Below are positions 5 to 43,203 of a DNA stretch of 64,000 bases, piece after piece (position 1 is the stretch's first letter; each line of letters starts with the position of its first letter). Below the pieces are notes generated by a model. That model did no database searches. It was given only the letters and a program-made list of their open reading frames with translations, and was not told the origin of the DNA. Source of the stretch: Candidatus Tepidifontimicrobium thermophilum (GTDB taxonomy: Bacteria; Sysuimicrobiota; Sysuimicrobiia; Sysuimicrobiales; Sysuimicrobiaceae); the NCBI GenBank assembly GCA_031459915.1, contig JAVKHO010000001.1, positions 120,840-184,839 on the forward strand. Reading direction: 5' to 3'. The position numbers and the translations under genes were made by a program.

Positions 5-568
5 GTGCGGGTGGTGCCCCGCTCGCAGTTGCGTGAGGAACCAGCGGACGCCCAGACCCTGGCGGCGGCCACGGAGATGGCCCGCACCCTGGTCAGCAAG
101 ATGGGGTTTTCCGCGTCGGTGCTGGCCCATGCCACCGAACGGGGGCTGTTCGTGGACGTCCGGGGGGAGGACCTGGGCCTGCTGATCGGACGCAGGGGTC
201 AGGGCATCGAGGCCGTGGAGACGGTCCTGACGGCGATGGTGCACCAGGCCACGGGGTCTCGCGCGGAAGTGGAGGTGGACATCGGGGGTTACCGCGCCCG
301 GCGGCGGCAGCACTTGGCGGAGCTGGCCCGACGGGCGGCCAGGAGGGCTGTGGCGCAGGGCAAGCCGGTGCACCTGCCGCCCATGGACTCCCGTGAAAGG
401 CGCGTGGTCCACTCCGAGCTGGCCGGCGACCCCAAGGTGACCACCCGCAGCGAGGGCACAGGCGACAGCCGGCACGTGGTGGTGGAGCCCGCGGCGGGCC
501 AGCAGCACGCTAGAAGGCCCCAGAGGAAGCCGGTCGGGCGCGCCTGGCAGCAGCGCCGTGGACCTTGA
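5..568 (+). CDS. jag: Jag/KhpB-like RNA-binding protein with KH and R3H domains; the 5' end probably continues upstream of the window.
   Basis: The translation has a Jag-type C-terminal R3H region (RRVVHSELAG...KVTTRSEGTGDSRHVVV). It sits immediately upstream of rsmG-parAB, the conserved position for jag. The ORF opens at the window edge with GTG. Confidence 0.7.
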   Translation: MRVVPRSQLREEPADAQTLAAATEMARTLVSKMGFSASVLAHATERGLFVDVRGEDLGLLIGRRGQGIEAVETVLTAMVHQATGSRAEVEVDIGGYRARRRQHLAELARRAARRAVAQGKPVHLPPMDSRERRVVHSELAGDPKVTTRSEGTGDSRHVVVEPAAGQQHARRPQRKPVGRAWQQRRGP

Positions 569-1166
569 GGAGGCCTGTCGGGCTTTAGGCCTTCAGCTTC
601 CGGAAAGTCAGCTGGCCGTCTTGCGGCGTTACCTGGACCTCCTCGTGCAGTGGAACCGCAAGCTGGATTTGGTAGCCCCTGCGGCTCCGGACCAGCTGCT
701 CAGGGCCCACGTGCTGGACAGCCTCCTGCTGCTGGCTATGATCCAGCCCCCGCAAGGGGGGGCCGTGGCGGACGTGGGTAGCGGTGCGGGACTGCCTGGA
801 GTGGTGTGGGCGGTGGCCAGGCCGGACCTGTGGGTATTGCTGCTGGAGCCCAGGCGGAAGCGGGCGGCCTTCCTGGAGCGTGTGACGCTCGAGTTGAAAC
901 TAGCAAACGTGCAGGTGGAGCCAGTCCGGGCGGAGCGTGCGGCCGCAAACCCGCAGTACGCGCGGCGGTTCCACGTGGTGGTGGCCCGGGCGGTGGCCGG
1001 GCCTCAGAGGTTTCTGCATCTGGCAGGCGGGTTGGTCAGGCCGGGAGGGGTGGTGGCAGTGCCTGTGGGGCCCGACACGGAGATCCTGCCTCCGTTCCGG
1101 GAGGTGCGTTGGCCCGTGCCATGGGAGCCCGGGAGGACGCGCAGGGTGGCGGTCGCTGTGGCCTGA
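558..1166 (+). CDS. rsmG: 16S rRNA m7G527 methyltransferase RsmG (GidB).
   Basis: SAM-methyltransferase glycine motif VADVGSGAGLPG. Length of about 200 aa and position before parAB both fit RsmG. GTG start overlaps the jag end. Confidence 0.85.
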   Translation: MDLEEACRALGLQLPESQLAVLRRYLDLLVQWNRKLDLVAPAAPDQLLRAHVLDSLLLLAMIQPPQGGAVADVGSGAGLPGVVWAVARPDLWVLLLEPRRKRAAFLERVTLELKLANVQVEPVRAERAAANPQYARRFHVVVARAVAGPQRFLHLAGGLVRPGGVVAVPVGPDTEILPPFREVRWPVPWEPGRTRRVAVAVA

Positions 1167-1178
1167 TGGCCTGACCAT

Positions 1179-1194
1179 TATTTCCCGGGAAATA
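1179..1194. promoter_or_regulatory. parS-like perfect 16-bp palindrome TATTTCCCGGGAAATA in the rsmG-parA intergenic region.
   Basis: Read directly from the sequence. It matches the canonical parS (TGTTTCACGTGAAACA) at 12 of 16 positions. A near-identical palindrome lies just after parB. Confidence 0.45.
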
Positions 1195-1264
1195 GAGACG
1201 GCGGGCGAGCCCTCTTCGAGCCCTCTTAGAGGACCCAGGGGCCCGGCAGCAGAAAAACCAAGTC

Positions 1265-2053
1265 GTGATCTTGGCGCTAGCCAACCAGAAGGGCGGGGTC
1301 GGTAAGACCACCACCGCGGTGAACCTGGGCGCCTACCTGGCCAGGGGGCGCTGGAGGGTGCTCCTCGTGGACCTGGACCCGCAGGGTAACGCCACAAGCG
1401 GACTGGGGGTACACCGGGACTACGTGAGGCTGTCCACCTACGACTGCTTGCTCCGAGGTGCCTCCGTCAAGCAGGCCGCCCTCCCTACCGAGCTTGATGG
1501 GTTGGACCTACTCCCCAGCAGCGTAGACCTGGCAGGCGCGGAGGTTGAGCTGGTGGACGCCCCGTCGAGGGAGACACGCGTCAGGGACGCCCTGGAACCC
1601 GTGAAGGGGAGCTACGACTGGATCCTCGTGGACTGCCCGCCTTCCCTCGGTCTTTTGACCGTGAACGCCCTGGCCGCCGCGGACGGGGTCCTTGTGCCCA
1701 TCCAGTGTGAGTTCTACGCTCTGGAGGGCCTGGCGCAGCTGGTACACACCGTGGAACTGGTCAAAAGGACCCTCAACCCCAGACTGCACGTGGCCGCGGT
1801 GGTCCTGACCATGTACGACCCTCGCACGAACCTGAGCGAGCAGGTCGCCGAGGAGGTCCGGCGCTACTTCGGGAGCTGCGTGGCCAGGACGGTCATTCCC
1901 CGGAGCGTGCGGCTGGCCGAGGCACCGAGCCACGGAAAGCCCGTGATGCTGTACGACCCCCACTCAAAGGGCGCCCGGGCGTACGAGGCCCTGGCGGAGG
2001 AGCTGGGGACCAAGCTGCGTCCCGTAGCAGGGGTCGCAGGGGGGGTGCGGTGA
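1265..2053 (+). CDS. parA: Chromosome partitioning ATPase ParA/Soj.
   Basis: Deviant Walker A motif KGGVGKTT near the N-terminus, about 260 aa, followed directly by parB. Confidence 0.9.
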   Translation: MILALANQKGGVGKTTTAVNLGAYLARGRWRVLLVDLDPQGNATSGLGVHRDYVRLSTYDCLLRGASVKQAALPTELDGLDLLPSSVDLAGAEVELVDAPSRETRVRDALEPVKGSYDWILVDCPPSLGLLTVNALAAADGVLVPIQCEFYALEGLAQLVHTVELVKRTLNPRLHVAAVVLTMYDPRTNLSEQVAEEVRRYFGSCVARTVIPRSVRLAEAPSHGKPVMLYDPHSKGARAYEALAEELGTKLRPVAGVAGGVR

Positions 2054-2910
2054 GCCCGCACCGGCCGCGTGGCCTGGGCAGGGGACTTGCAGCCCTGATC
2101 CCAGGGGCTGAAGTTCTCGCGCGCGAGGAACGGATCGAGTACCTCCCGCTGGACCGGGTAAGGCCCGGCAAAAACCAGCCCAGGAGTTCCCTCCCCGTGG
2201 AGGAGCTGGAGGAGCTCGCAGCGTCCGTTCGGGTGCACGGGATCCTGCAACCGATCGTGGTGAGGCCTTCCGGGGACGGCTACGAGATCGTGGCGGGTGA
2301 GCGCAGGTGGCGGGCGGCGGTCCTGGCGGGCCTGGCTACTGTGCCCGCGGTGGTCCGTCAGGTGGGCGAGCTGGAAAGCCTGGCCCTGGCCCTGGTGGAG
2401 AACCTGCAGCGACAGGATCTCAACCCCGTGGAGCGGGCAAGGGCCTACCGGAGGCTTGTGCAGGAGTTCGGCCTTTCCCAGCAGGAGATCGCGCGCCTGG
2501 TGGGCCGCAGCCAGCCCGCGGTGGCCAACACCCTGCGGCTGCTGTCCCTGCCCCAGGAGGTTCTGCAGGCGGTGGAAGAGGGTCAGCTTTCCGAGGCCCA
2601 CGCCCGCCTGCTCCTGGAGGTGGAGGACCCCGGGCGCCGGGTGGAGCTGGCGCGCCTGGCGGTGGCGCGCAGGCTGACCACCAGGGAGCTGGGACGGCTG
2701 GTGCGTCCGAAGAGCGGCCCTGCGCGCGCGCGGCGCGCAGGGCCGTCCAGCCCTGACCTTGTGGCTCTGGAGGAGGCTTTAAGCCAGCGCCTCGGGACCC
2801 GGGTACGGGTGCGGACCGGCCGCGGACGCGGGGTGGTGGAGATCGAGTTCTACTCCGACGACGACCTTTCCAGGATCTGCGAGCTGGTCCTGGGCGGCCC
2901 CCTGCCCTGA
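2050..2910 (+). CDS. parB: Chromosome partitioning protein ParB/Spo0J.
   Basis: ParB box GERRWRAA, a helix-turn-helix region, and a C-terminal dimerisation region. The GTG start overlaps the parA stop. Confidence 0.9.
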   Translation: MSPHRPRGLGRGLAALIPGAEVLAREERIEYLPLDRVRPGKNQPRSSLPVEELEELAASVRVHGILQPIVVRPSGDGYEIVAGERRWRAAVLAGLATVPAVVRQVGELESLALALVENLQRQDLNPVERARAYRRLVQEFGLSQQEIARLVGRSQPAVANTLRLLSLPQEVLQAVEEGQLSEAHARLLLEVEDPGRRVELARLAVARRLTTRELGRLVRPKSGPARARRAGPSSPDLVALEEALSQRLGTRVRVRTGRGRGVVEIEFYSDDDLSRICELVLGGPLP

Positions 2911-2914
2911 CCTG

Positions 2915-2930
2915 TATTTCTCGAGAAATA
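2915..2930. promoter_or_regulatory. parS-like perfect 16-bp palindrome TATTTCTCGAGAAATA, 5 nt downstream of the parB stop.
   Basis: Read directly from the sequence. It differs from the 1179..1194 palindrome only at the two central positions (CCGG versus TCGA). Confidence 0.45.
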
Positions 2931-2933
2931 GCC

Positions 2934-4151
2934 GTGAGGTCCGACCTCGACAGGCTGATGGAGGAAAGGGGCCTGGACGCCCTGGTGGTGGCGGGCAGGG
3001 CGGACGAGGCGAACATGCTGTACGTCCTGCGCGGGGTGGCCATCCCGGGGGCGATCTACGTGAAAAAGCGCGGCCATCCCGGGGTGCTGTGCCACGGGAC
3101 TATGGAGCGGGGGGAGGCCGAAAGGACTGGGCTGCGGACCCGCAACCTAGGGCTGTACGACTGGAAGGAGCTCTTGCAGAAGGCCGGAGGCGACCCCCTG
3201 GAGGCCAGGGTGCTGCTCTTCCAGCGCGTTTTCCAAGACGAGGACGTGCGGGGGAGGGTGGCCTTCTACGGCGAGGTGGACCAAGGGGTCGCGTACCGGT
3301 TCCTCGGCAGGCTCGCCGCCTGCCTGGAAGGTATTGAAGTCGTGGGGGAGTACGGCCGCAGCGTGCTGGCCGTGGCCCGGGAGACCAAGGACCCAGACGA
3401 GCTGGAGAAGATTCGGGAAGTGGGGGCCGCCACCCAGCGGGTGGTGCAGAAAACCGAGCAGTTCCTCCGCTCCTGCCCCGCCAGGGACGGCCTCCTGCAC
3501 AAACCGGACGGTAGCGTGCTGACCGTCGGGGACGTGAAGGCCAGGGTCCGGGTCTGGCTCGCTGAAGAAGGGCTGGAGGAGTCCGGCACCATCTTCTCTC
3601 AAGGTCGGGACGCCGGGCTCCCCCACTCCAGAGGCGACGACCGGGCTCCGGTGACCGCGGGGGTGCCCGTGGTGTTCGACATCTTCCCCAGGCCCTCAGG
3701 CGGCGGGTACCACTTCGACATGACCCGCACCTGGTGTGTGGGAAATCCCTCGGCGGAAGCGCTGCAGGTGTACCGGGACGTGTACGAGTGCTACGCGCGG
3801 GTGACAGAGGCCCTGCGCCCGGGGGTCCGGTGTGCGGACCTGCAAAGGATGGCGTGTGAGTTCTTCGAGTCGCGGGGACACCCCACGGTCTGTTCAGACC
3901 CTACCGCCCAGGTGGGCTACGTTCACAGTCTCGGGCACGGCCTGGGGCTGGACGTGCACGAGGAGCCCCGGCTTTCGGACCACCCCGGCAATGAGGCGGT
4001 TTTGCGGCCGGGTGTGGTGGTGACGGTGGAGCCGGGCCTGTACTATCCGGATCAGGGTATAGGGGTCAGGCTGGAGGACGTGTGGGCGATCACGGAGGAC
4101 GGGGCGGTAAATTTGGGCGGTTACCCCATGGACCTAGTGCTTAGGTCCTAA
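2934..4151 (+). CDS. M24 family Xaa-Pro aminopeptidase/dipeptidase.
   Basis: Creatinase-like N-terminal half and M24 metal-ligand signature HSLGHGLGLDVHEEP; about 405 aa. Confidence 0.8.
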   Translation: MRSDLDRLMEERGLDALVVAGRADEANMLYVLRGVAIPGAIYVKKRGHPGVLCHGTMERGEAERTGLRTRNLGLYDWKELLQKAGGDPLEARVLLFQRVFQDEDVRGRVAFYGEVDQGVAYRFLGRLAACLEGIEVVGEYGRSVLAVARETKDPDELEKIREVGAATQRVVQKTEQFLRSCPARDGLLHKPDGSVLTVGDVKARVRVWLAEEGLEESGTIFSQGRDAGLPHSRGDDRAPVTAGVPVVFDIFPRPSGGGYHFDMTRTWCVGNPSAEALQVYRDVYECYARVTEALRPGVRCADLQRMACEFFESRGHPTVCSDPTAQVGYVHSLGHGLGLDVHEEPRLSDHPGNEAVLRPGVVVTVEPGLYYPDQGIGVRLEDVWAITEDGAVNLGGYPMDLVLRS

Positions 4152-5392
4152 GTCTGGGCAGCGCCCAACCACTTCTCCTCTTCCCGCGCCTTGTAGAGGG
4201 CGCGGTCGGCCGCCCGAAGCAAGTCGTCCACAGTGGCCCCGTGCTCGGGGCAGCTGGCTACCCCCACGGTGACGTCCGCGCCCCGGAGCCCGTCGCCGGA
4301 CCACAGGGCCTGGTACAGAGACTCCGCCAGCGCCAGGGCTCCAGAAGACCCCGTACCCGGCAGCAGGAGAGCGAACTCGTCCCCCCCGAGGCGGAACGCG
4401 TAGTCGGTCCGGCGCATGCGCCGGCGCAGGACGTGGGCCACCCACTGCAGTACTGCGTCGCCGGCCTGGTGGCCCAGGGTGTCGTTGACCCGTTTGAAGT
4501 GACGCAAGTCCAGCAACACCAAGCTCACGGGGTCCCCGTAGCGGCGGTGCCGGGCCAGCTCCCGCTGCCCGATTTCCACGAACATGCGGCGGTTCAAAAG
4601 GTCCGTGAGGGGGTCGGTGGTGCTCAGGCGTTCCAGCTCCCGCGTGGCCTGCTCCAGGCGTGCGTGGAGGTCCCGGCTGGCCCGGTAGGCCTGGAGGGTC
4701 AGGCCCACCAACAGCCACACGGAAACGGTGAGGGCGAAAACGGGCACCCCACTCCGGTACGCCATAACAAGCAGCGCCGACATGGGCGCGTACACCGCGA
4801 CGCTGACGCCGAGCATCGGGCCCAGAACACCCGGCTGCAGGGTGGCCGGGTCTTTAGACTCGAAAAACCGCGCCACGGCGGCGGCAGGGGTGTTGATGAG
4901 GCCGTGCACCAGCCCCGCGGCCAGGAGAGCGGCCACGTCACGAGGGGCGGGTAGCTCGGGCAAGGGGCCACCCCACAGCCGCCAGAGGAGGCCGCCGGCC
5001 AGAAACATGGCAAGGGACGTGTTTCCGAAGAACACCGCCGCTCGCTGGGGGCTGACGCGGTGGACTAGCGGCAGAACCAGGGCGCAGAGGGCGTACAGAG
5101 GCGGCGCGGCCGTCCAGCCCAGCAGCCACACGGCGCCGAAGACGAAGGGGGCCTGCATGCCGAGGATCACCCCCGAGGGGAAGCGGATGACCACGGCGTT
5201 GCCCACGGCCGTGAGGGCAGCGAAGACGAGGAACGTCCGCGCGTCTGGGATCCGGGCCAGGTGCGGGAGGGCGGCGCCCAGCAGGACCAGGCCCACCGCC
5301 AGCCAACTAAGGGCGTAGGCCAGGTACACCCGGGGGGGCCCGGCACGGGTCGGAGGCAGGGTGGTTCCCATTCGTGTCCTCCGGTGGGGCAC
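4148..5392 (-). CDS. Diguanylate cyclase with a multi-pass membrane N-terminal domain and a GGDEF domain.
   Basis: Several hydrophobic helices, then GGDEF signatures (DPLTDLLNRR ... RLGGDEFALLLPG). The N-terminal start is uncertain; an alternative ATG lies at 5371. Confidence 0.8.
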   Translation of the reverse strand: MPHRRTRMGTTLPPTRAGPPRVYLAYALSWLAVGLVLLGAALPHLARIPDARTFLVFAALTAVGNAVVIRFPSGVILGMQAPFVFGAVWLLGWTAAPPLYALCALVLPLVHRVSPQRAAVFFGNTSLAMFLAGGLLWRLWGGPLPELPAPRDVAALLAAGLVHGLINTPAAAVARFFESKDPATLQPGVLGPMLGVSVAVYAPMSALLVMAYRSGVPVFALTVSVWLLVGLTLQAYRASRDLHARLEQATRELERLSTTDPLTDLLNRRMFVEIGQRELARHRRYGDPVSLVLLDLRHFKRVNDTLGHQAGDAVLQWVAHVLRRRMRRTDYAFRLGGDEFALLLPGTGSSGALALAESLYQALWSGDGLRGADVTVGVASCPEHGATVDDLLRAADRALYKAREEEKWLGAAQT

Positions 5393-5440
5393 TAGGCAAC
5401 TTCAGTGCCAGGATACGGACAAAACTCGGGAGGGAGCTTG

Positions 5441-5998
5441 GTGAAGCGGGACGAGGCTTACGCCCTGGTGTGCGAGTGGATCGGGAACCCGAACCTGCGC
5501 AAGCACCTTCTGGCGGTGGAGGCCTGCATGCGGGCGTACGCGCGCCGGTTCGGGGCTGACGAGGACGAGTGGGGGACCGTAGGCCTGCTGCACGACCTCG
5601 ACTACGAGCGCTACCCCTACGCGGGACCGGGCGGACACCCCTTCGTGGGCGTGGAGGAGCTGCGCCGGCGCGGGGTGCCCGAGCACTGGTGCAGGGCGAT
5701 CCTCTCCCACGCGGACTACAGCGGGGTGCCGCGCCAGACCCCCATGGAGAAGGCGCTGTTCGCGTGCGACGAGATCACGGGGTTCGTGGTGGCAGTAGCC
5801 CTGGTGAAGGGCCGGTCCCTCCGGAACGTGGACGTGGAGTCTGTCAAGCGCAAGATGAAGGACAAAGCGTTCGCGCGGGCGGTGAGTCGGGAAGACTTGG
5901 TGCGGGGCGCGGAGGAGCTGGGGGTACCCTTCGAGGACCACGTGAGCACCGTGCTGGAGGCCATGCGGGGCGTCGGGGAGGCCCTGGAGCTTGCTTAG
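5441..5998 (+). CDS. HD-domain metal-dependent phosphohydrolase.
   Basis: HD motif GTVGLLHDLDYERY with a downstream histidine-rich region. GTG start with a GGGAGG ribosome-binding site. The six-frame ORF opens at 5405. Confidence 0.65.
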   Translation: MKRDEAYALVCEWIGNPNLRKHLLAVEACMRAYARRFGADEDEWGTVGLLHDLDYERYPYAGPGGHPFVGVEELRRRGVPEHWCRAILSHADYSGVPRQTPMEKALFACDEITGFVVAVALVKGRSLRNVDVESVKRKMKDKAFARAVSREDLVRGAEELGVPFEDHVSTVLEAMRGVGEALELA

Positions 5999-7297
5999 TC
6001 ACCCCTCAGCTGCGGCCACCGGGAGTCCCTTTTCCCTGGCCCGGTACAGGGCGGCGTCCGCGGCGGCCACCAGCGCGTCCGGGTCCCGGCCGTGGTCAGG
6101 GAACGTGGCTACCCCAACGGTGGCCTCCAGGCGCGCACCGGGCGCGGAGTCCAGCCGGGTCCCGGCCAGGAGGTCGGTAATGGCCTCTGCCACGGTCAGG
6201 GCCCCCTGGGTGTCGGTGTCCGGAAGCAGCAGGGCGAACTCGTCCCCGCCGATGCGGAACGCCAGGTCGGAGCCGCGCAGCCGATCCCGGAATACCTCGG
6301 CGGCGCGCTGCAGAGCCCGGTCGCCCGCTTCGTGCCCGTAGGTGTCGTTGACGTGCTTGAGGCTGCGGAGGTCCACCACCAGAAGGCTGAGGGGCCGGCC
6401 GGTCCGGGCGTGCCTGTGCAGCTCCTTCGGGAGGACCTGCACGAAGTGCCTGCGGTTCCACAGCCCCGTCATGGGGTCTGTGACGGTGAGGCGCTCCAGT
6501 TCCCGCAAGGCTTCCTGCAGGCGCTCGTTGGCCCGCCGGGTCTCCGCCAGCCCCTTCATGGCCACTGCGGTCAGCAGCCACACGCCTACCGCCAGAAAGG
6601 CAGCTGCCGGTCCGGTCTGCAGGGCGAGGAGCAGAAGGTAGGCGAGCAGCACGTACCCGGAGAAGACCAGGGTGAGCCCCTCGAGGGCCTGACGGAGCTG
6701 CAGGACCCGGGCGTCCCCGGTGGCCAGGTAGCGGCCGAAGGCGGCCACGAGGAAGTTGCCCACAGTGAACACCCCGCCGGAGACCAGCACGGAGGCTAGC
6801 TCGGACCAGGTGGGCTGCGGGGAAGGGCCGGGCCGGAGGAGCGCGAAAAGGTTGCCGGCGGTAGCGGCCCACACGCAGCCGTTTCCGAAGTACAGGAGCG
6901 CACGGAGCGGATCCCCGCGGCTGTTGCGCAGCACGAGGGGCAGGGTGAGCAGGAACAGGGGTGGTGCGGCTTTCCAGCCGTACAGCCACACCGGTGCCAG
7001 GATGGCCTGAAGGCTCAAGCGCAGGCCGCCGGGCAGGTCCAGGACGAAGAACACGTGTCCGGACAGGGAGATCGCGGCGAACAGCAGGTACTCGGGAGGG
7101 AAGCGCGGGAGTGCGGGCGCGGACAGCAACACCAACACCACCCCCGCTCCGGCCCACGCGAGGGTGTACACTCGATACGCGCCGGGCCGCGCAACGCTAG
7201 ACCGAGGGACCACGGTCGTGGCCAACGGCAAACCTCCCGTGTGGGGTTCGCCCCCAGGCGTCCCCCACCGAGATGGAGCAAGCGAGGAGCCATCCAT
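5999..7297 (-). CDS. Diguanylate cyclase with a membrane domain and GGDEF, paralogous to 4148..5392.
   Basis: Same architecture as the first cyclase; GGDEF signatures DPMTGLWNRR ... RIGGDEFALLLPD. The true start is probably downstream of 7297, because the divergent decarboxylase starts at 7296. Confidence 0.75.
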   Translation of the reverse strand: MDGSSLAPSRWGTPGGEPHTGGLPLATTVVPRSSVARPGAYRVYTLAWAGAGVVLVLLSAPALPRFPPEYLLFAAISLSGHVFFVLDLPGGLRLSLQAILAPVWLYGWKAAPPLFLLTLPLVLRNSRGDPLRALLYFGNGCVWAATAGNLFALLRPGPSPQPTWSELASVLVSGGVFTVGNFLVAAFGRYLATGDARVLQLRQALEGLTLVFSGYVLLAYLLLLALQTGPAAAFLAVGVWLLTAVAMKGLAETRRANERLQEALRELERLTVTDPMTGLWNRRHFVQVLPKELHRHARTGRPLSLLVVDLRSLKHVNDTYGHEAGDRALQRAAEVFRDRLRGSDLAFRIGGDEFALLLPDTDTQGALTVAEAITDLLAGTRLDSAPGARLEATVGVATFPDHGRDPDALVAAADAALYRAREKGLPVAAAEG

Positions 7298-8735
7298 GAG
7301 AACACCCTTGGAAGTCGAACGTCAGTTCGCATCCTCTGCAGCGCGAGTGGTGGACTGGATCCAGGGGTACTTCGAGGACGCGGAGCGCTACCCGGTGCTG
7401 TCCCGAGCGCAGCCCGGACAGCTGCGCTCCGCGCTGCCAGCTTCACCCCCCTTCGAACCCGAGCCCTTCGAGGCGGTGTGGGAGGACTTCCAGCGCGTGG
7501 TGCTGCCCGCCGTGACCCACTGGAACCACCCCGCCTTCTTCGCGTACTTCGCCATCACCGGGTCCGCGCCAGGCGTGCTGGGTGAGATGCTGTCCGCGGC
7601 CCTGAACGTGAACGGGATGCTCTGGAGGACCTGCCCGGCGGCCACCGAGCTGGAGCAGGTGGCGCTGGACTGGCTCCGGCAGATGCTGGGCCTGCCCGAA
7701 CAGTTCGGGGTGATCATGGACACCGCCTCGGTGGCCACCCTGTGCGCGGTGGCCGCGGCGCGGGAAGCCCTGGGCCTCGACATCCGCACGCGCGGAATGG
7801 CGGGGCGGCCGGACCTCCCGCGGCTGCGCCTTTATACCTCCGAGCAAGCGCACTCCAGCGTGGAGAAGGCAGCCATCGTGCTGGGTCTGGGCCAGGAAGG
7901 CGTCCGCAAGGTCCCCACGGATGAGGACTACCGCATGCGGCCGGACGCCCTGGAAGACGCCATCCGGGAGGATGTCCGCGCCGGGTGGCGGCCAGTGTGC
8001 GTGGTGGCCACGGTGGGTACCACCTCCACCACCAGCGTGGACCCGGTGGACGAGATCGCCGCGGTGTGCGAACGGTACGGGGTGTGGTTGCACGTGGACG
8101 CGGCCTACGGCGGCGCGGCCGCGATCCTGCCGGAGATGCGGTGGGTGCTGCGGGGCTGCGAGCGGGCCGACTCCTTCCTCGTGAACCCCCACAAGTGGCT
8201 GTTCACCCCCATCGACTGCACCGCCTTCTACACCCGGCGCCCGGACGTCCTGCGCGGTGCGTTCAGCCTGGTGCCCGCTTACCTGCAGACGCCCGTAGCG
8301 GACGCGGTGAACTTCATGGACTACGGGATCCAGCTGGGACGCCGGTTCCGCGCTCTGAAGCTGTGGATGGTCATCCGCATGTTCGGGGTGCGGGGGCTGC
8401 AGGAGGCGTTGCGCGGCCACCTGGAGCTGGCCCGGCAGTTCGCGGACTGGGTGGACGCGTCCGAGGAGTTCGAGCGGGTGGCACCGGTCCCCTTTTCCAC
8501 CGTGTGCTTCCGGCACCGGGCTCCCGGACTGGCCGCAGAGGAGGCGAACCGGTTCAACGAGCGGCTGTTGGAGGCGGTCAACGCTACCGGCGAGGCGTAC
8601 CTGTCGCACACGGTCCTGCGCGGCCGGTATGTCCTCCGGCTGGCGGTCGGCAACCTGCGCACCCAGCTCCGGCACGTGCGCCGGTGCTGGGAGCTGCTCC
8701 AGGAACAGGCGCGGAAGCTGCAGGGCCTGCGGTAG
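7296..8735 (+). CDS. PLP-dependent group II decarboxylase (aromatic-L-amino-acid or tyrosine decarboxylase family).
   Basis: NPHKW pyridoxal-lysine motif and a family-typical N-terminal region (VVDWIQGYFEDAERYPV). Start taken at the internal ATG 7296 (MRTPLEVERQF) rather than the long upstream ORF. Confidence 0.8.
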   Translation: MRTPLEVERQFASSAARVVDWIQGYFEDAERYPVLSRAQPGQLRSALPASPPFEPEPFEAVWEDFQRVVLPAVTHWNHPAFFAYFAITGSAPGVLGEMLSAALNVNGMLWRTCPAATELEQVALDWLRQMLGLPEQFGVIMDTASVATLCAVAAAREALGLDIRTRGMAGRPDLPRLRLYTSEQAHSSVEKAAIVLGLGQEGVRKVPTDEDYRMRPDALEDAIREDVRAGWRPVCVVATVGTTSTTSVDPVDEIAAVCERYGVWLHVDAAYGGAAAILPEMRWVLRGCERADSFLVNPHKWLFTPIDCTAFYTRRPDVLRGAFSLVPAYLQTPVADAVNFMDYGIQLGRRFRALKLWMVIRMFGVRGLQEALRGHLELARQFADWVDASEEFERVAPVPFSTVCFRHRAPGLAAEEANRFNERLLEAVNATGEAYLSHTVLRGRYVLRLAVGNLRTQLRHVRRCWELLQEQARKLQGLR

Positions 8736-8760
8736 ACCGGTCCCGCGGGAGGGGTAGACC

Positions 8761-9204
8761 GTGGAAGGGCTTCGGGTGTTGGACTGGGCTCTGGTGTGTG
8801 CGGTCGGGGTGCTGGCGGCCGCGGTGGCCGTGCTGGGCCGCCGGACCGTACACCTGGCGCGCGGGGCGGACACGGACCGGTCCTCGGAGGATCAGGCCCG
8901 TGCCCTGCAGAGGCTCCGGGCGGACCTGGACGCGGCCCGGGCGGAGCAGGTGCATCTGGCGGAGCAGTTGGCGCGGTGCGTGCAGCGGGTGGGCATGGTC
9001 CGCTACGACGCCTTCCAGGAGTCCGGGGGCCGGCTGTCGTTCAGCCTGGCGTTGCTGGACGGGCGGGGTGACGGGGTGGTCCTGAGCGTGCTGCACGGCC
9101 GGGACGGCTCGTACGCGTACGCCAAGGCCCTCCGGGACGGCAAGCCCTCCCACCCCCTCTCGGAGGAAGAACGCCAGGCGGTGGCTCAGGCCATGGGAGG
9201 CTGA
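8761..9204 (+). CDS. DUF4446-like protein with an N-terminal transmembrane helix and a coiled-coil.
   Basis: The 147-aa sequence resembles the DUF4446 family often found near parAB (recognition from memory). High third-position GC supports coding. Confidence 0.55.
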   Translation: MEGLRVLDWALVCAVGVLAAAVAVLGRRTVHLARGADTDRSSEDQARALQRLRADLDAARAEQVHLAEQLARCVQRVGMVRYDAFQESGGRLSFSLALLDGRGDGVVLSVLHGRDGSYAYAKALRDGKPSHPLSEEERQAVAQAMGG

Positions 9205-9898: not shown

Positions 9899-11468
9899 CG
9901 AGGTGCTGGACCGGCTGAGGGAGGCCGCGGCCGAGCTGGGAAGGCTGCTGGAGGCCCTGCCGGACGGGCTTCTGCGGGAGCCCCTGGAGCGGTGGACCCC
10001 GCTGGACGTGGCCGCACACCTCGTGGGCTGGAACCACCACGTGGCCCGTGGCCTCCAACAGTTGGTCCGGGGGCAGGCGCCCTCCTACCTCCCCCAGGCC
10101 CAGCAGGACTACGCGGAGCTGAACGCGGAGTCGGTGGCGCGGTGGGGCGGACTGGACCGGCGCGCGCTTCTGGCCGAGCTAGAGGCCTCTCTGGCGGAGC
10201 TGCTGGCGTTTTTGACCTCGCTAGCCCCGGAGCTGTGGGACCGGGACTTCGGGGTCCGACACCGGGACCGGCCCGTGACCGTGCTGCGGACTGCTGGCGC
10301 GCTGGCGCAGGACTACGTCTCGCACACGGAGCGGTTGCGGGCGTGGGCGGCGCGGCGCGGGGTCGAAGTTCCGCGGCAGCGGCTGCTCCGTACGGCCCTG
10401 TACCGACGGCACGTGCAGCTCGGGGCGCGCATGGTGCCGTTCGCGGGCTGGGAGATGCCTGTGCAGTACGGGGGGATCGTGGCGGAACACCGCGCAGTCC
10501 GGACCGCGGCAGGGCTGTTCGACGTCTCCCACATGGGCGAGGTCCGCATCTGGGGGCCCGGCGCGCTTTCGACCCTCGACCGACTGTTGTGCAACGATCC
10601 CCGGCGGCTTGCAGTGGGCCAGGCCCTGTACACGCCCATGTGCGGCCCGAACGGCGGGGTGCTGGACGACCTGGTGGTGTGTCGGCTGGGCGAGGACCGG
10701 TACCTGCTGGTGGTGAACGCCAGCCGGCGGGAGCAGGACAGCCAGTGGGTACGGGACCACGCGCGGGACTGCCGCGTCCGGGACGTCTCCTTCTTCACCT
10801 CACTGGTGGCGCTGCAGGGCCCGAGGGCCCAGGAGCTGCTGCAGCGCCTCACCGAGTTCGACCTGTCCAGCCTGCCGCGCTTCCGCCTGACGCCGCCAAT
10901 CGGGGTGGCCGGGGTCCGGGCTGTGGTGTCGCGGACCGGGTATACGGGCGAGGACGGTTTCGAAATCCTCACGGACTGGCTCGACGCCCTTCCGGTGTGG
11001 GACGCCCTGGTGGACCTGGGGGCAACCCCCTGCGGGCTGGGCGCCCGCGACACCCTGCGGCTGGAGGCGGGCTACCTGCTGTACGGCCAGGACATGGATG
11101 AGTCCACCACGCCGCTGGAGGCCGGGCTGGGCTGGACCGTGAAGCTGGAGGGCCGGGAGTTCGTGGGCGCCGACGCCCTGCGCCGGCAGAAAGCCGAGGG
11201 GGTGCGGCGGCGTCTGTGCGGGCTCGTGCTGGAGGGGAGGGCCATTGCGCGGTCGGGCTGCGCGGTCCTCCGGGACGGGGAGGTGGTCGGGCGGGTGACC
11301 AGCGGCACGTTCGGCCCGTGGGTGCAGCGCAGCATCGCCCTCGCCTACCTCCCCGCGGAGCTGGCTGCGGCCGGCACGCGGGTGGAGGTGGAGGTGAGGG
11401 GCCAGCGGGTCGGCGCAGAGGTGGCCAGCCTGCCCTTTTACCGGAGGGCTTCGGGCGGTGGGATATAG
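9888..11468 (+). CDS. gcvT: DinB/YfiT-like (MDMPI N-terminal type) domain fused in-frame to the glycine cleavage T protein (aminomethyltransferase).
   Basis: The first 155 aa or so carry a DinB_2-like signature (WTPLDVAAHLVGWNHHV). The remaining 365 aa or so are a typical GcvT (LYRRHVQLGARMVPFAGWEMPVQYGG ...). There is no stop codon and no canonical start between the two parts. AGGAGG then GTG at 9888. Confidence 0.7.
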   Translation: MDRDEVLDRLREAAAELGRLLEALPDGLLREPLERWTPLDVAAHLVGWNHHVARGLQQLVRGQAPSYLPQAQQDYAELNAESVARWGGLDRRALLAELEASLAELLAFLTSLAPELWDRDFGVRHRDRPVTVLRTAGALAQDYVSHTERLRAWAARRGVEVPRQRLLRTALYRRHVQLGARMVPFAGWEMPVQYGGIVAEHRAVRTAAGLFDVSHMGEVRIWGPGALSTLDRLLCNDPRRLAVGQALYTPMCGPNGGVLDDLVVCRLGEDRYLLVVNASRREQDSQWVRDHARDCRVRDVSFFTSLVALQGPRAQELLQRLTEFDLSSLPRFRLTPPIGVAGVRAVVSRTGYTGEDGFEILTDWLDALPVWDALVDLGATPCGLGARDTLRLEAGYLLYGQDMDESTTPLEAGLGWTVKLEGREFVGADALRRQKAEGVRRRLCGLVLEGRAIARSGCAVLRDGEVVGRVTSGTFGPWVQRSIALAYLPAELAAAGTRVEVEVRGQRVGAEVASLPFYRRASGGGI

Positions 11469-11888: not shown

Positions 11889-13262
11889 GTGCGCTACATT
11901 CCCACGACCCCGGAAGAGCGCGAGTACATGCTGCGGCTGATCGGCGTCCGCTCCGTGGAGGACCTGTTCGCGGACGTCCCCGACAGCGTCCGGCTGCGCC
12001 GGCCCCTGCGCCTGCGGCCCGCCCTCAGCGACCCGGAGGTGCTCCGGTACCTGGGTGCCCTGGCGAACCGGAACGCGCACGCGGACCGCCTGACCTGCTT
12101 TGTGGGCGCGGGGGCCTACGACCACTTCGTGCCGCCCGCGGTGTGGCAGCTGGTCGGCCGGGGCGAGTTCCTGACCGCTTACACCCCCTACCAGGCCGAG
12201 ATCATGCAGGGCGAGCTGCAGGCGACCTATGAGTACCAGACCATGGTGTGCGAGCTGCTGGGGATGGAGGTCGCGAACGCCTCCATGTACGACGGGGCCT
12301 CCGCCCTCGGCGAAGCCGCGGTGATGGCGCGGGACCTCACGAAACGGGACCGGGTGGTGGTGAGCCGGGCGGTCCACCCGGAGTACCGGCAGGTGCTGCG
12401 CACGTACACCGAGCCGCTGGGGATCCGGGTGGTGGAGCTGCCGCACGAGGCAGGCACCACGCCGCCGGGCCCGCGGGAGCTGAACGGGCGTACCGCGGCC
12501 GTGGTGGTCCAGCACCCCAACTTCTTCGGCTGCCTGGAGGACGTGCGCGGCTGGGCGGAGGCCGCGCACGGGGCGGGCGCTCTCCTGGTGGTGGCCTGCT
12601 CAGACCCCCTGGCGTTTGGCCTGCTGGAGCCGCCGGGAGCTCTCGGGGCGGACATCATCGCCGCGGAGGGCCAGCCGCTGGGGAACCCGTTGAACTTCGG
12701 CGGTCCGTACCTGGGGATCATTGCCACCCGGCAGGAGTTCGTGCGGCGCATGCCGGGGCGTCTGGTGGGCGCCACCGTGGACCGTCACGGCCGCCGGGGC
12801 TTTGTGCTGACCCTCCAGACCCGCGAGCAGCACATCCGGCGGGAAAAGGCCACCAGCAACATCTGCACCAACGAGGCCCTCAACGCGCTGGCGGCGGCGG
12901 TGTACCTGAGCCTGCTGGGCCCTCAGGGGGTCCGGCAGGTGGCGGAGCTGTGCCTGCGCAAGGCGGACTACTTGAAGTCCCGGGTGGCGGAGCTGCCAGG
13001 CTTCCAGCTGCCGTTCCGCGCGCCCACATTCCACGAGTTCGTGGTGCGGACGCCCAGGCCCGCGGAGGCTCTCGTCCGGGCCCTGATCCGCGAGGGCTTC
13101 TTGGCCGGCCTGCCGCTAGGCAGGTTTTACCGGGGCATGCGGGACTGCCTGCTGGTGGCCGTCACGGAGACCCGGACCCGGGAGGAGATGGACCGGTTCG
13201 TGGAGGCCCTGGAGCGCGCCTGCCGGCGCGGGCGGCAGGCGGTGGGAGGTCGGGTGCTGTGA
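11889..13262 (+). CDS. gcvPA: Glycine dehydrogenase (decarboxylating) subunit 1.
   Basis: Typical GcvPA N-terminus ([15 protein letters not shown]); 457 aa. Confidence 0.9.
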
Positions 13263-29385: not shown

Positions 29386-29668
29386 TCCGAGCGGCCGTGC
29401 ACCCGCCGTCGACGCCGCGACCGCGGCGGCCCCCGCGTACCGGCTCCGGCTAGGTGCCCCTGCGGCGCCCGGGAGGGTCTGCTTACCGTTGCTTCCTTCC
29501 GGACCTGGCGGGGTTCGCAGGTTCCCGTCGCGCAGGACCCAGCCGTCCTCACCGGGGACCGCGGACCGGACCCGTAGCCGCGCCGCCTCGGGCGGGGGTT
29601 CAGCCCCCCTGTGGCGGATCGGGGGTACAGGGAACCGCCAGCTCCCCGCCTAGCACGGCCGCGCCCCG
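29386..29668 (-). ncRNA. ffs: Signal recognition particle RNA (ffs), long Bacillus-type.
   Basis: The minus strand carries the domain IV signature CAGGUCCGGAAGGAAGCAACGG, a near-exact match to the bacterial consensus GUCCGGAAGGAAGCAGC. A 10-bp terminal helix closes the molecule (GCGGCCGUGC at the 5' end pairing with GCACGGCCGC at the 3' end). An extended -10 element (TGcTATACT) lies just upstream. It sits on the upstream side of dnaX, as in Bacillus. Confidence 0.65.
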
Positions 29669-32583: not shown

Positions 32584-32660
32584 TGGCGCGCCCGGAGGGA
32601 CTCGAACCCCCAACCTTCTGATCCGTAGTCAGATGCTCTGTCCAGTTGAGCTACGGGCGC
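32584..32660 (-). tRNA. tRNA-Arg (anticodon ACG) with encoded CCA.
   Basis: Cloverleaf folded by hand: acceptor stem GCGCCCG/CGGGCGC, D-stem GCUC/GAGC, anticodon stem UCUGA/UCAGA with loop CUACGGA, T-loop UUCGAGU, discriminator G, then CCA. Confidence 0.9.
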
Positions 32661-43128: not shown

Positions 43129-43203
43129 TGGCTCCGGCGGTAGGACTCGAACCTACAACCCCCTGGTTAACAGCCAGGTGCTCTACCATTGAGCTACGCC
43201 GGA
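43129..43203 (-). tRNA. tRNA-Asn (anticodon GUU) with encoded CCA.
   Basis: Cloverleaf folded by hand: acceptor stem UCCGGCG/CGCCGGA, anticodon stem CCUGG/CCAGG with loop CUGUUAA, T-loop UUCGAGU. Confidence 0.9.

Follow-up and report, generated by a model that had tools for sequence, protein, structure and literature searches.

The chromosome partition operon parAB of Candidatus Tepidifontimicrobium thermophilum lies near the start of a 64-kb stretch of contig JAVKHO010000001.1 (positions 120,840 to 184,839; hereafter the window) and is bracketed by two 16-bp palindromes that resemble parS, the centromere site of the partition protein ParB. ParB-parS is the textbook case of a bacterial centromere with nearly universal conservation. 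The palindromes next to parAB are very likely (a probability of about 0.85) the parS sites of the one chromosomal ParB, whose gene lies between them. A sequence-only reading of this DNA had proposed centromere sites for a ParB with shifted specificity, and this proposal is now supported by three independent lines of sequence evidence. These are the glutamine and alanine found at ParB recognition positions 173 and 201, the clade-wide covariation of these residues with the bases they would read, and a phylogenetic footprint in which the palindromes are conserved islands at orthologous positions.

Site 1 occupies the spacer between rsmG and parA, 13 nt 3' of the rsmG stop codon and 71 nt 5' of the parA GTG, whereas site 2 begins 5 nt past the parB stop codon (2908-2910) and ends 4 nt short of the next open reading frame (ORF; at 2934), which encodes an M24 peptidase (Table 1). 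Both are perfect 16-mer palindromes whose mutual differences are confined to positions 7 and 10. Each matches canonical parS (TGTTTCACGTGAAACA) at 12 of 16 positions, the mismatches falling at positions 2, 7, 10 and 15. The location, symmetry and degree of likeness to parS given in the sequence-only reading were thereby borne out by direct inspection of the sequence. The same reading had put site 1 in the parA promoter; the placement between rsmG and parA stands, and the promoter label is unverified, a scan of positions 1000-3200 having returned no sigma-70-like promoter. A terminator scan of the same interval gave none that coincides with either palindrome, and site 2 was rejected as a terminator hairpin because no T-run follows it.

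Both sites are exceptional within the window. The pattern TATTTCNNNNGAAATA, searched at up to two mismatches, has two matches in 64 kb, which are sites 1 and 2 (0.01 expected), and the core TTTCN4GAAA alone again occurs only at these two sites (0.08 expected). AT-rich palindromes of this kind are rare here because the G+C content of the window is about 70%. Canonical parS (TGTTNCACGTGAAACA), by comparison, has no match at up to three mismatches in the window or in the 8 kb upstream of it, which include the dnaA region; the sites near the origin are instead A-type variants (pattern ATTTCNNNNGAAAT, ATTTC..GAAAT) rather than G-type (GTTTC..GAAAC). A canonical parS near oriC, which would have told against the sequence-only reading, is thus absent from the 72 kb of this genome that were covered. 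Ten independent assemblies or contigs encode an identical ParB, and all of them hold sites 1 and 2 and no others, so the sites are no assembly artefact. Three of the ten reach about 8 kb further upstream, taking in dnaA, dnaN and gyrB, and contain no extra site.

The protein encoded between the sites has the features of a chromosomal ParB. It scores 183 bits against TIGR00180 (cutoff 58) and contains Pfam PF02195, PF17762 and PF23552. Its GERRWRA and ENLQR motifs align with those of solved ParB structures from Thermus, Myxococcus and Bacillus, the best structural match being Thermus Spo0J at 189 bits. DNA specificity in this family is set by residues 173, 179, 184 and 201 (Caulobacter ParB numbering, used throughout), which are RTAG in ParB and QKKR in the related protein Noc, as shown experimentally (PMC7383237). 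R173 hydrogen-bonds guanine 1 of the site and Q173 bonds adenine 1; G201 presents no side chain toward thymine -6, whereas R201 bonds guanine -6, and R173 and G201 have been described as absolutely conserved among ParB orthologues (PMC7383237). When these positions were mapped by structure alignments and a MAFFT alignment, they corresponded to Q155, T161, S166 and A183 of the protein studied here. Comparison with ParB structures, that of Bacillus included, therefore places Q rather than R at 173 and A rather than G at 201, in line with the suggested shift in specificity. Alongside Q155, both sites have adenine at base 1. A183 is neither the glycine of ParB nor the arginine of Noc, and at base 6 site 1 has C where site 2 has T.

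Much of this system is nonetheless that of canonical ParABS, as represented by Bacillus subtilis Soj/Spo0J-parS, Thermus thermophilus Spo0J and Caulobacter ParB. Shared features are a three-domain ParB with the GERRxRA CTPase motif and LGRGL, a parA-parB operon adjoining rsmG near oriC, and 16-bp palindromes, built on a TTTC-N4-GAAA core, that lie next to parAB or within it. The differences lie in the replacement of recognition residues R173 and G201 by Q and A, in base 1, which is A and not G, in base 6, which is a pyrimidine and not A, and in the lack of any canonical parS in 72 kb.

All 16 bp of site 1 match the Noc-binding site (NBS) of B. subtilis (ATTTCCCGGGAAAT), whereas site 2 departs from it at base 6 in both half-sites. 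This identity and the Noc-like R-to-Q change were missed by the sequence-only reading. The NBS duplex crystallised with Noc is GGATATTTCCCGGGAAATATCC. Within the 14-bp core, NBS and parS are distinguished by two positions only, NBS having A in place of G at base 1 and C in place of A at base 6 (PMC7383237); a further report gives NBS as 16 bp long (PMC8429893). The Noc-NBS system of Firmicutes therefore has in common with the present one the glutamine at 173, the adenine at base 1 and, in site 1, the 16-bp NBS of the co-crystal. In addition, the NCBIfam Noc model TIGR04285 is nominally the top match of the protein. On these grounds the protein could be taken for a Noc-like nucleoid-occlusion factor, or a dual ParB/Noc, with the palindromes acting as NBS and not as centromeres. 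Such a role is very unlikely for several reasons. The score of 213 bits against the Noc model is far below its cutoff of 315, and Q173 is the only specificity residue in common, K179, K184 and R201 being replaced by T, S and A. Noc has a conserved N-terminal amphipathic membrane-targeting helix, and about 70 NBS are scattered in Bacillus (PMC4331003). The N-terminus of the present protein (MSPHRPRGLGRGLAALIPG), in contrast, aligns with that of Spo0J, lacks this helix and carries the ParA-binding motif LGRGL. This motif, defined as (L|F|I)G[K|R]G(L|F|I), is absent from Noc (PMC12704722), and an LGRGL-type motif is kept in all full-length sequences of the clade described below.

Gene order and phylogeny point the same way. 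Noc is usually a paralogue present in addition to ParB, its gene lying in the interval from rsmG to parA, and genuine Noc genes in the control loci (Q..R, giving residues 173 and 201) always stand beside an R-type ParB and canonical parS. Here, the gene is 3' of parA, whose stop codon overlaps the parB start, and no second ParB homologue occurs in the window or in the approximately 20-kb locus of each relative. A neighbour-joining tree (numpy implementation) was built from 209 ParB and Noc sequences with 100 bootstraps. The 45 Q173 ParBs that it includes all fall into a single clade (81/100), found in metagenome-assembled genomes (MAGs) that NCBI labels Armatimonadota, as are the source genomes of this ParB. 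Noc forms its own clade (61/100) and joins the Q173 clade in 0 of 100 replicates; Q173 therefore arose independently of Noc, and its occurrence in both is convergent. Glutamine is present at position 173 in about 90 of the 120 best homologues, those of at least 57% identity being almost all Q..A and those of 50-57% identity Q..G. The sites here are also few and origin-proximal, two in number and both at parAB, although 72 kb is a small sample against the roughly one NBS per 60 kb of Bacillus and too little to settle their distribution. In Noc systems, dozens of sites are spread along the chromosome, the terminus excepted. The LGRGL motif, the overlap with parA, the status as sole homologue and the sub-cutoff Noc score mark the protein as a ParB rather than a Noc.

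Among Q..A relatives with 58-86% ParB identity, the two-site arrangement recurs at the syntenic origin loci (Table 1). Upstream orthologues of the form [C/T]ATTTC[C/T]CG[A/G]GAAAT[A/G] hold the same position in four of them (L172, L173, L175 and L178), and a 16-mer identical to site 2 overlaps the parB 3' end or lies 3-87 nt past parB in five (the same four and L171). When the rsmG-parA and post-parB spacers were aligned, the palindromes were the sole conserved islands, down to 58% ParB identity, and no other site type was seen in any locus of the Q clade (about 20 kb each). In Q..G members of the clade (L093, L135, L176, L177 and L181), one copy of TATTTCACGTGAAATA lies within parB, some 640-670 nt from its start, and encodes ISREI. 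At 600-740 nt into parB, R173 ParBs have TGTTTCACGTG[A/G]AACA, where the encoded peptide is VSRET or VSRGT. Among these ParBs are those of the sister group (L179) and of L180, a syntenic R173 relative, together with L017, L105, L112 and L113. The two are the same site, one half having A for G and the other T for C in the Q..G members. The intragenic parS falls in the linker that joins the DNA-binding domain to the C-terminal one, where it is positionally conserved across distant ParBs. The site also constrains the peptide it encodes, VSRET accompanying canonical parS and ISREI the A-type site.

This footprint bears on the alternative that the palindromes are operators of an unrelated transcription factor and that their likeness to parS and NBS is coincidental, a version of which the sequence-only reading had entertained. 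Their intergenic placement at both ends of the operon would suit operators, and the link to ParB is drawn from sequence comparison. The idea nevertheless found no support and is the least probable of the alternatives. The TTTC-N4-GAAA architecture is that of parS, and the base that departs from parS tracks ParB residue 173 across lineages. Moreover, the site of basal clade members lies inside parB exactly where R173 relatives have canonical parS, and no other regulator gene is conserved beside the sites in the loci of syntenic relatives.

The correspondence between residue 173 and base 1 was counted over sites within 3 kb of parB that have a perfect TTTC/GAAA core and at most two palindrome mismatches. 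A profile search of genome contigs (broad ParB alignment; universal motifs ENLQR and GERRWRA) yielded mostly unrelated R173 ParBs, which served as controls. A metagenome search with a query from the helix-turn-helix (HTH) region, one of its two patterns being generic, gave 7 Q-type loci out of 80, and the remaining Q-type loci were taken from contigs encoding relatives of the ParB. An A-type site is present in 11 of the 16 Q-type loci and a G-type site in none, whereas the 143 R-type loci have a G-type site in 66 cases and an A-type site in one (Fisher's exact test of site type against ParB type, p = 1.5e-12, a value that overstates independence, as it carries no phylogenetic correction and the Q clade has a single origin). 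Base 6 behaves similarly with respect to residue 201. Where residue 201 is G, base 6 is A in 107 of the 109 sites at R..G loci and in all 5 sites at Q..G loci; where it is A, base 6 is T or C in all 12 sites of the Q..A clade.

Besides the inflated Fisher value, several considerations weigh against a recoded centromere. Since the Q clade arose once, the covariation of R-to-Q and G-to-A counts essentially as a single event in evolution. The site copies are degenerate in two relatives, upstream in L171 and at both positions in L174. Most clade members lack Lys/Arg at positions 179 and 184, and in the Caulobacter scaffold the non-functional variants QTAG and QTAR, without lysine at these positions, bound 0 of 16 test sites (PMC7383237); function would therefore require other compensating residues. 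Finally, the view of this genome spans 72 kb, and a second ParB or Noc paralogue, or a canonical parS, may sit elsewhere in it.

Apart from positional orthology, the main covariation has independent parallels in Noc, in K173 lineages, and in R..A and R..R lineages. Two unrelated R..A lineages (key RTKA), one of them Clostridium thermobutyricum DSM 4928, have half-sites with T or G at base 6; A201 with a base 6 other than A therefore recurs outside the Q clade. A MAG named 'bacterium isolate bin40' encodes a ParB with both R173 and R201 (key RAGR), and its site is a natural hybrid in which base 1 is G and base 6 is C, as expected from the R201-to-C6 rule (PMC7383237). ParBs with lysine at 173 (keys KTEG and KTDG), found on metagenome contigs, accompany palindromes with T at base 1, and K173/T1 is a possible third pairing of residue 173 with base 1. 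Five loci with the key KREG (L108, L120, L128, L136 and L168) showed no site.

ParB might also bind the two sites mainly to autoregulate or insulate parAB, the true centromere being elsewhere in the genome. The sites bracket the operon exactly, and 72 kb of the genome were inspected, as such a role would allow. It is improbable, though the least so of the alternatives, given that the control loci normally have as centromeres origin-proximal parS sites that adjoin parAB or lie within it, and that the Q-clade loci offer no other site type. It also overlaps with centromere function and does not exclude it.

If the palindromes are the cognate parS sites of a recoded ParB, Q at position 173 would hydrogen-bond adenine, not guanine, at base 1 of each half-site, so that the centromere would read ATTTC...GAAAT and not GTTTC...GAAAC. 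With A and not G at position 201, base 6 would have moved correspondingly from A to a pyrimidine. The resulting site is TATTTCYCGRGAAATA, whose Y=C version is the Bacillus NBS. By analogy with characterised ParBs, dimers would load on the sites as clamps dependent on cytidine triphosphate (CTP) and spread over the parAB and oriC-proximal region. The loaded protein would engage ParA through its N-terminal LGRGL, marking the origin for segregation, and it may in addition load SMC and autoregulate parAB.

The distribution of sites among relatives suggests how such a system may have arisen. The ancestor would have had an R..G ParB and an intragenic canonical parS. R173Q would then have been accompanied by an in-place G-to-A change at base 1 of both half-sites. 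G201A would have come next, with loss of the intragenic site and the appearance of two flanking ones whose base 6 is a pyrimidine. Overall, it is probable that the whole lineage of Armatimonadota-labelled MAGs recoded its chromosomal centromere in this way. Its single-copy ParB would have acquired R173Q with no duplication and without the permissive Lys179/184, its one or two parS sites would have changed from G to A in step, and the identity with the Noc site would be convergent. Together with K173/T1, R201/C6 and A201/T6, these pairings would make up a natural ParB recognition code that mirrors and extends the engineered one.

The engineered code comes from Caulobacter ParB-to-Noc intermediates (PtoN; Jalal et al. 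2020). As in that series, the Q..G members of the clade pair with a hybrid-type site, TATTTCACGTGAAATA, in which base 1 of NBS is combined with base 6 of parS; the QKAG and QTKG variants switched in vitro to such a hybrid site (PMC7383237). Unlike the engineered variants, the natural proteins lack the lysines at 179 and 184 that the Caulobacter scaffold needed, and A201 lies outside the engineered path. What appears to be new here is a canonical ParABS system with reader and centromere both recoded and, at base 1, the same solution reached convergently as in Noc-NBS. Literature searches with the 16-mers turned up only short hairpin RNA loop sequences (CTCGAG), and no earlier description of the variant was met in the literature covered on parS of Armatimonadetes, on divergent parS or on co-evolution of ParB with parS.

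A lineage in which an essential, single-copy ParB has switched would indicate that co-evolution of a centromere with its reader does not require duplication. The small number of sites that these genomes appear to keep, one or two, may have made this possible. In addition, the lineage supplies natural proteins for asking which residues replace the permissive lysines. In practical terms, origin prediction based on parS would miss these genomes, and motif searches could take their sites for Noc sites. The Q..G/TATTTCACGTGAAATA and Q..A/TATTTCYCGRGAAATA combinations are candidate orthogonal ParB/parS pairs for labelling.

Table 1. Features of the parAB region in the window, and sites at loci of other ParBs (positions in the latter are those of each locus).
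Feature	Position	Strand	Remarks
jag	5-568	+	Jag_EloR match
rsmG	558-1166	+	rsmG_gidB match
Site 1, upstream parS-like palindrome, TATTTCCCGGGAAATA	1179-1194	.	rsmG-parA spacer
parA (soj), Walker-type partition ATPase	1265-2053	+	ORF with KGGVGKT motif; ParA-family matches, Pfam ParA/CbiA/AAA_31
parB, 286 amino acids	2050-2910	+	ParB_N (GERRWRA), HTH_ParB and ParB_C domains
LGRGL codons, residues 9-13	2074-2088	+	N-terminal ParA-binding motif of canonical ParB; aligns with Thermus Spo0J GLGRGLEALLP
CAG codon, Q155	2512-2514	+	Caulobacter ParB R173, Noc Q158; residue reading base 1 of the 14-bp site
GCC codon, A183	2596-2598	+	Caulobacter ParB G201, Noc R186; residue facing base pair 6
Site 2, downstream parS-like palindrome, TATTTCTCGAGAAATA	2915-2930	.	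post-parB spacer
L172 sites			upstream CATTTCTCGAGAAATA (rsmG-parA spacer); downstream TATTTCTCGAGAAATA (parB end)
L173 sites			upstream CATTTCTCGAGAAATA; downstream TATTTCTCGAGAAATA
L178 sites			upstream CATTTCCCGAGAAATG; downstream TATTTCTCGAGAAATA
L175 sites			upstream TATTTCTCGGGAAATA; downstream TATTTCTCGAGAAATA
L171 sites			upstream TATTTAAGAGCAAATA (degenerate); downstream TATTTCTCGAGAAATA
L174 sites			upstream TATTGCGCGAGAAATG (degenerate); downstream TATTTCCCGGCGAATA (degenerate)
L040 sites (Clostridium thermobutyricum DSM 4928, R..A)	10857-10872, 12063-12078, 12214-12229		TGTTTCTCGTGAAACA twice and TGTTTCACGAGAAACA
L132 sites (R..A)	4761-4776, 4799-4814		TGTTTCTCAAGAAACA and TGTTTCGTGAGAAACA
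L034 sites ('bacterium isolate bin40', R..R)	418-433, 508-523		TGTTTCCCGGGAAACA twice, upstream of parAB
L143 sites (Lys173)	8721-8736, 9048-9063		GTTTTCACGTGAAAAC-type
L153 sites (Lys173)	8727-8742, 9051-9066		GTTTTCACGTGAAAAC-type
L117 site (Lys173)	1164-1179		GTTTTCACGTGAAAAC-type

The surroundings of parAB are those of a bacterial replication origin region. One strand carries gyrB, a remA-like gene, dciA, recF, an S4-domain gene, dnaN and dnaA, and the opposite strand carries rpmH-rnpA-yidD-yidC-jag-rsmG-parA-parB, dnaA being about 4 kb from parAB and its bracketing sites. In L002/L003, the genes at 857-1129 (-) and 5153-5935 (-), upstream of the window, are dciA of the dnaA-dnaN-recF-gyrB cluster and a gene with HATPase_c and HTH domains. 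A conserved HATPase_c and HTH (IclR/TrmB-like) gene lies between dnaA and rpmH, likely the oriC region, in all Q-clade loci.

Just 3' of parB are two paralogous genes for multi-pass membrane GGDEF proteins (diguanylate cyclases), at 4148-5392 (-) and 5999-7297 (-), with an HD-domain gene between them at 5405-5998 (+). Closer relatives (L171-L173 and L178) keep this GGDEF-HD-GGDEF arrangement, whereas more distant relatives have lost part of it. Rfam and ARAGORN searches of the window gave three matches in all, a large-type bacterial signal recognition particle RNA (29395-29658, -; 159 bits), tRNA-Arg(ACG) at 32584-32660 (-) and tRNA-Asn(GTT) at 43129-43203 (-).

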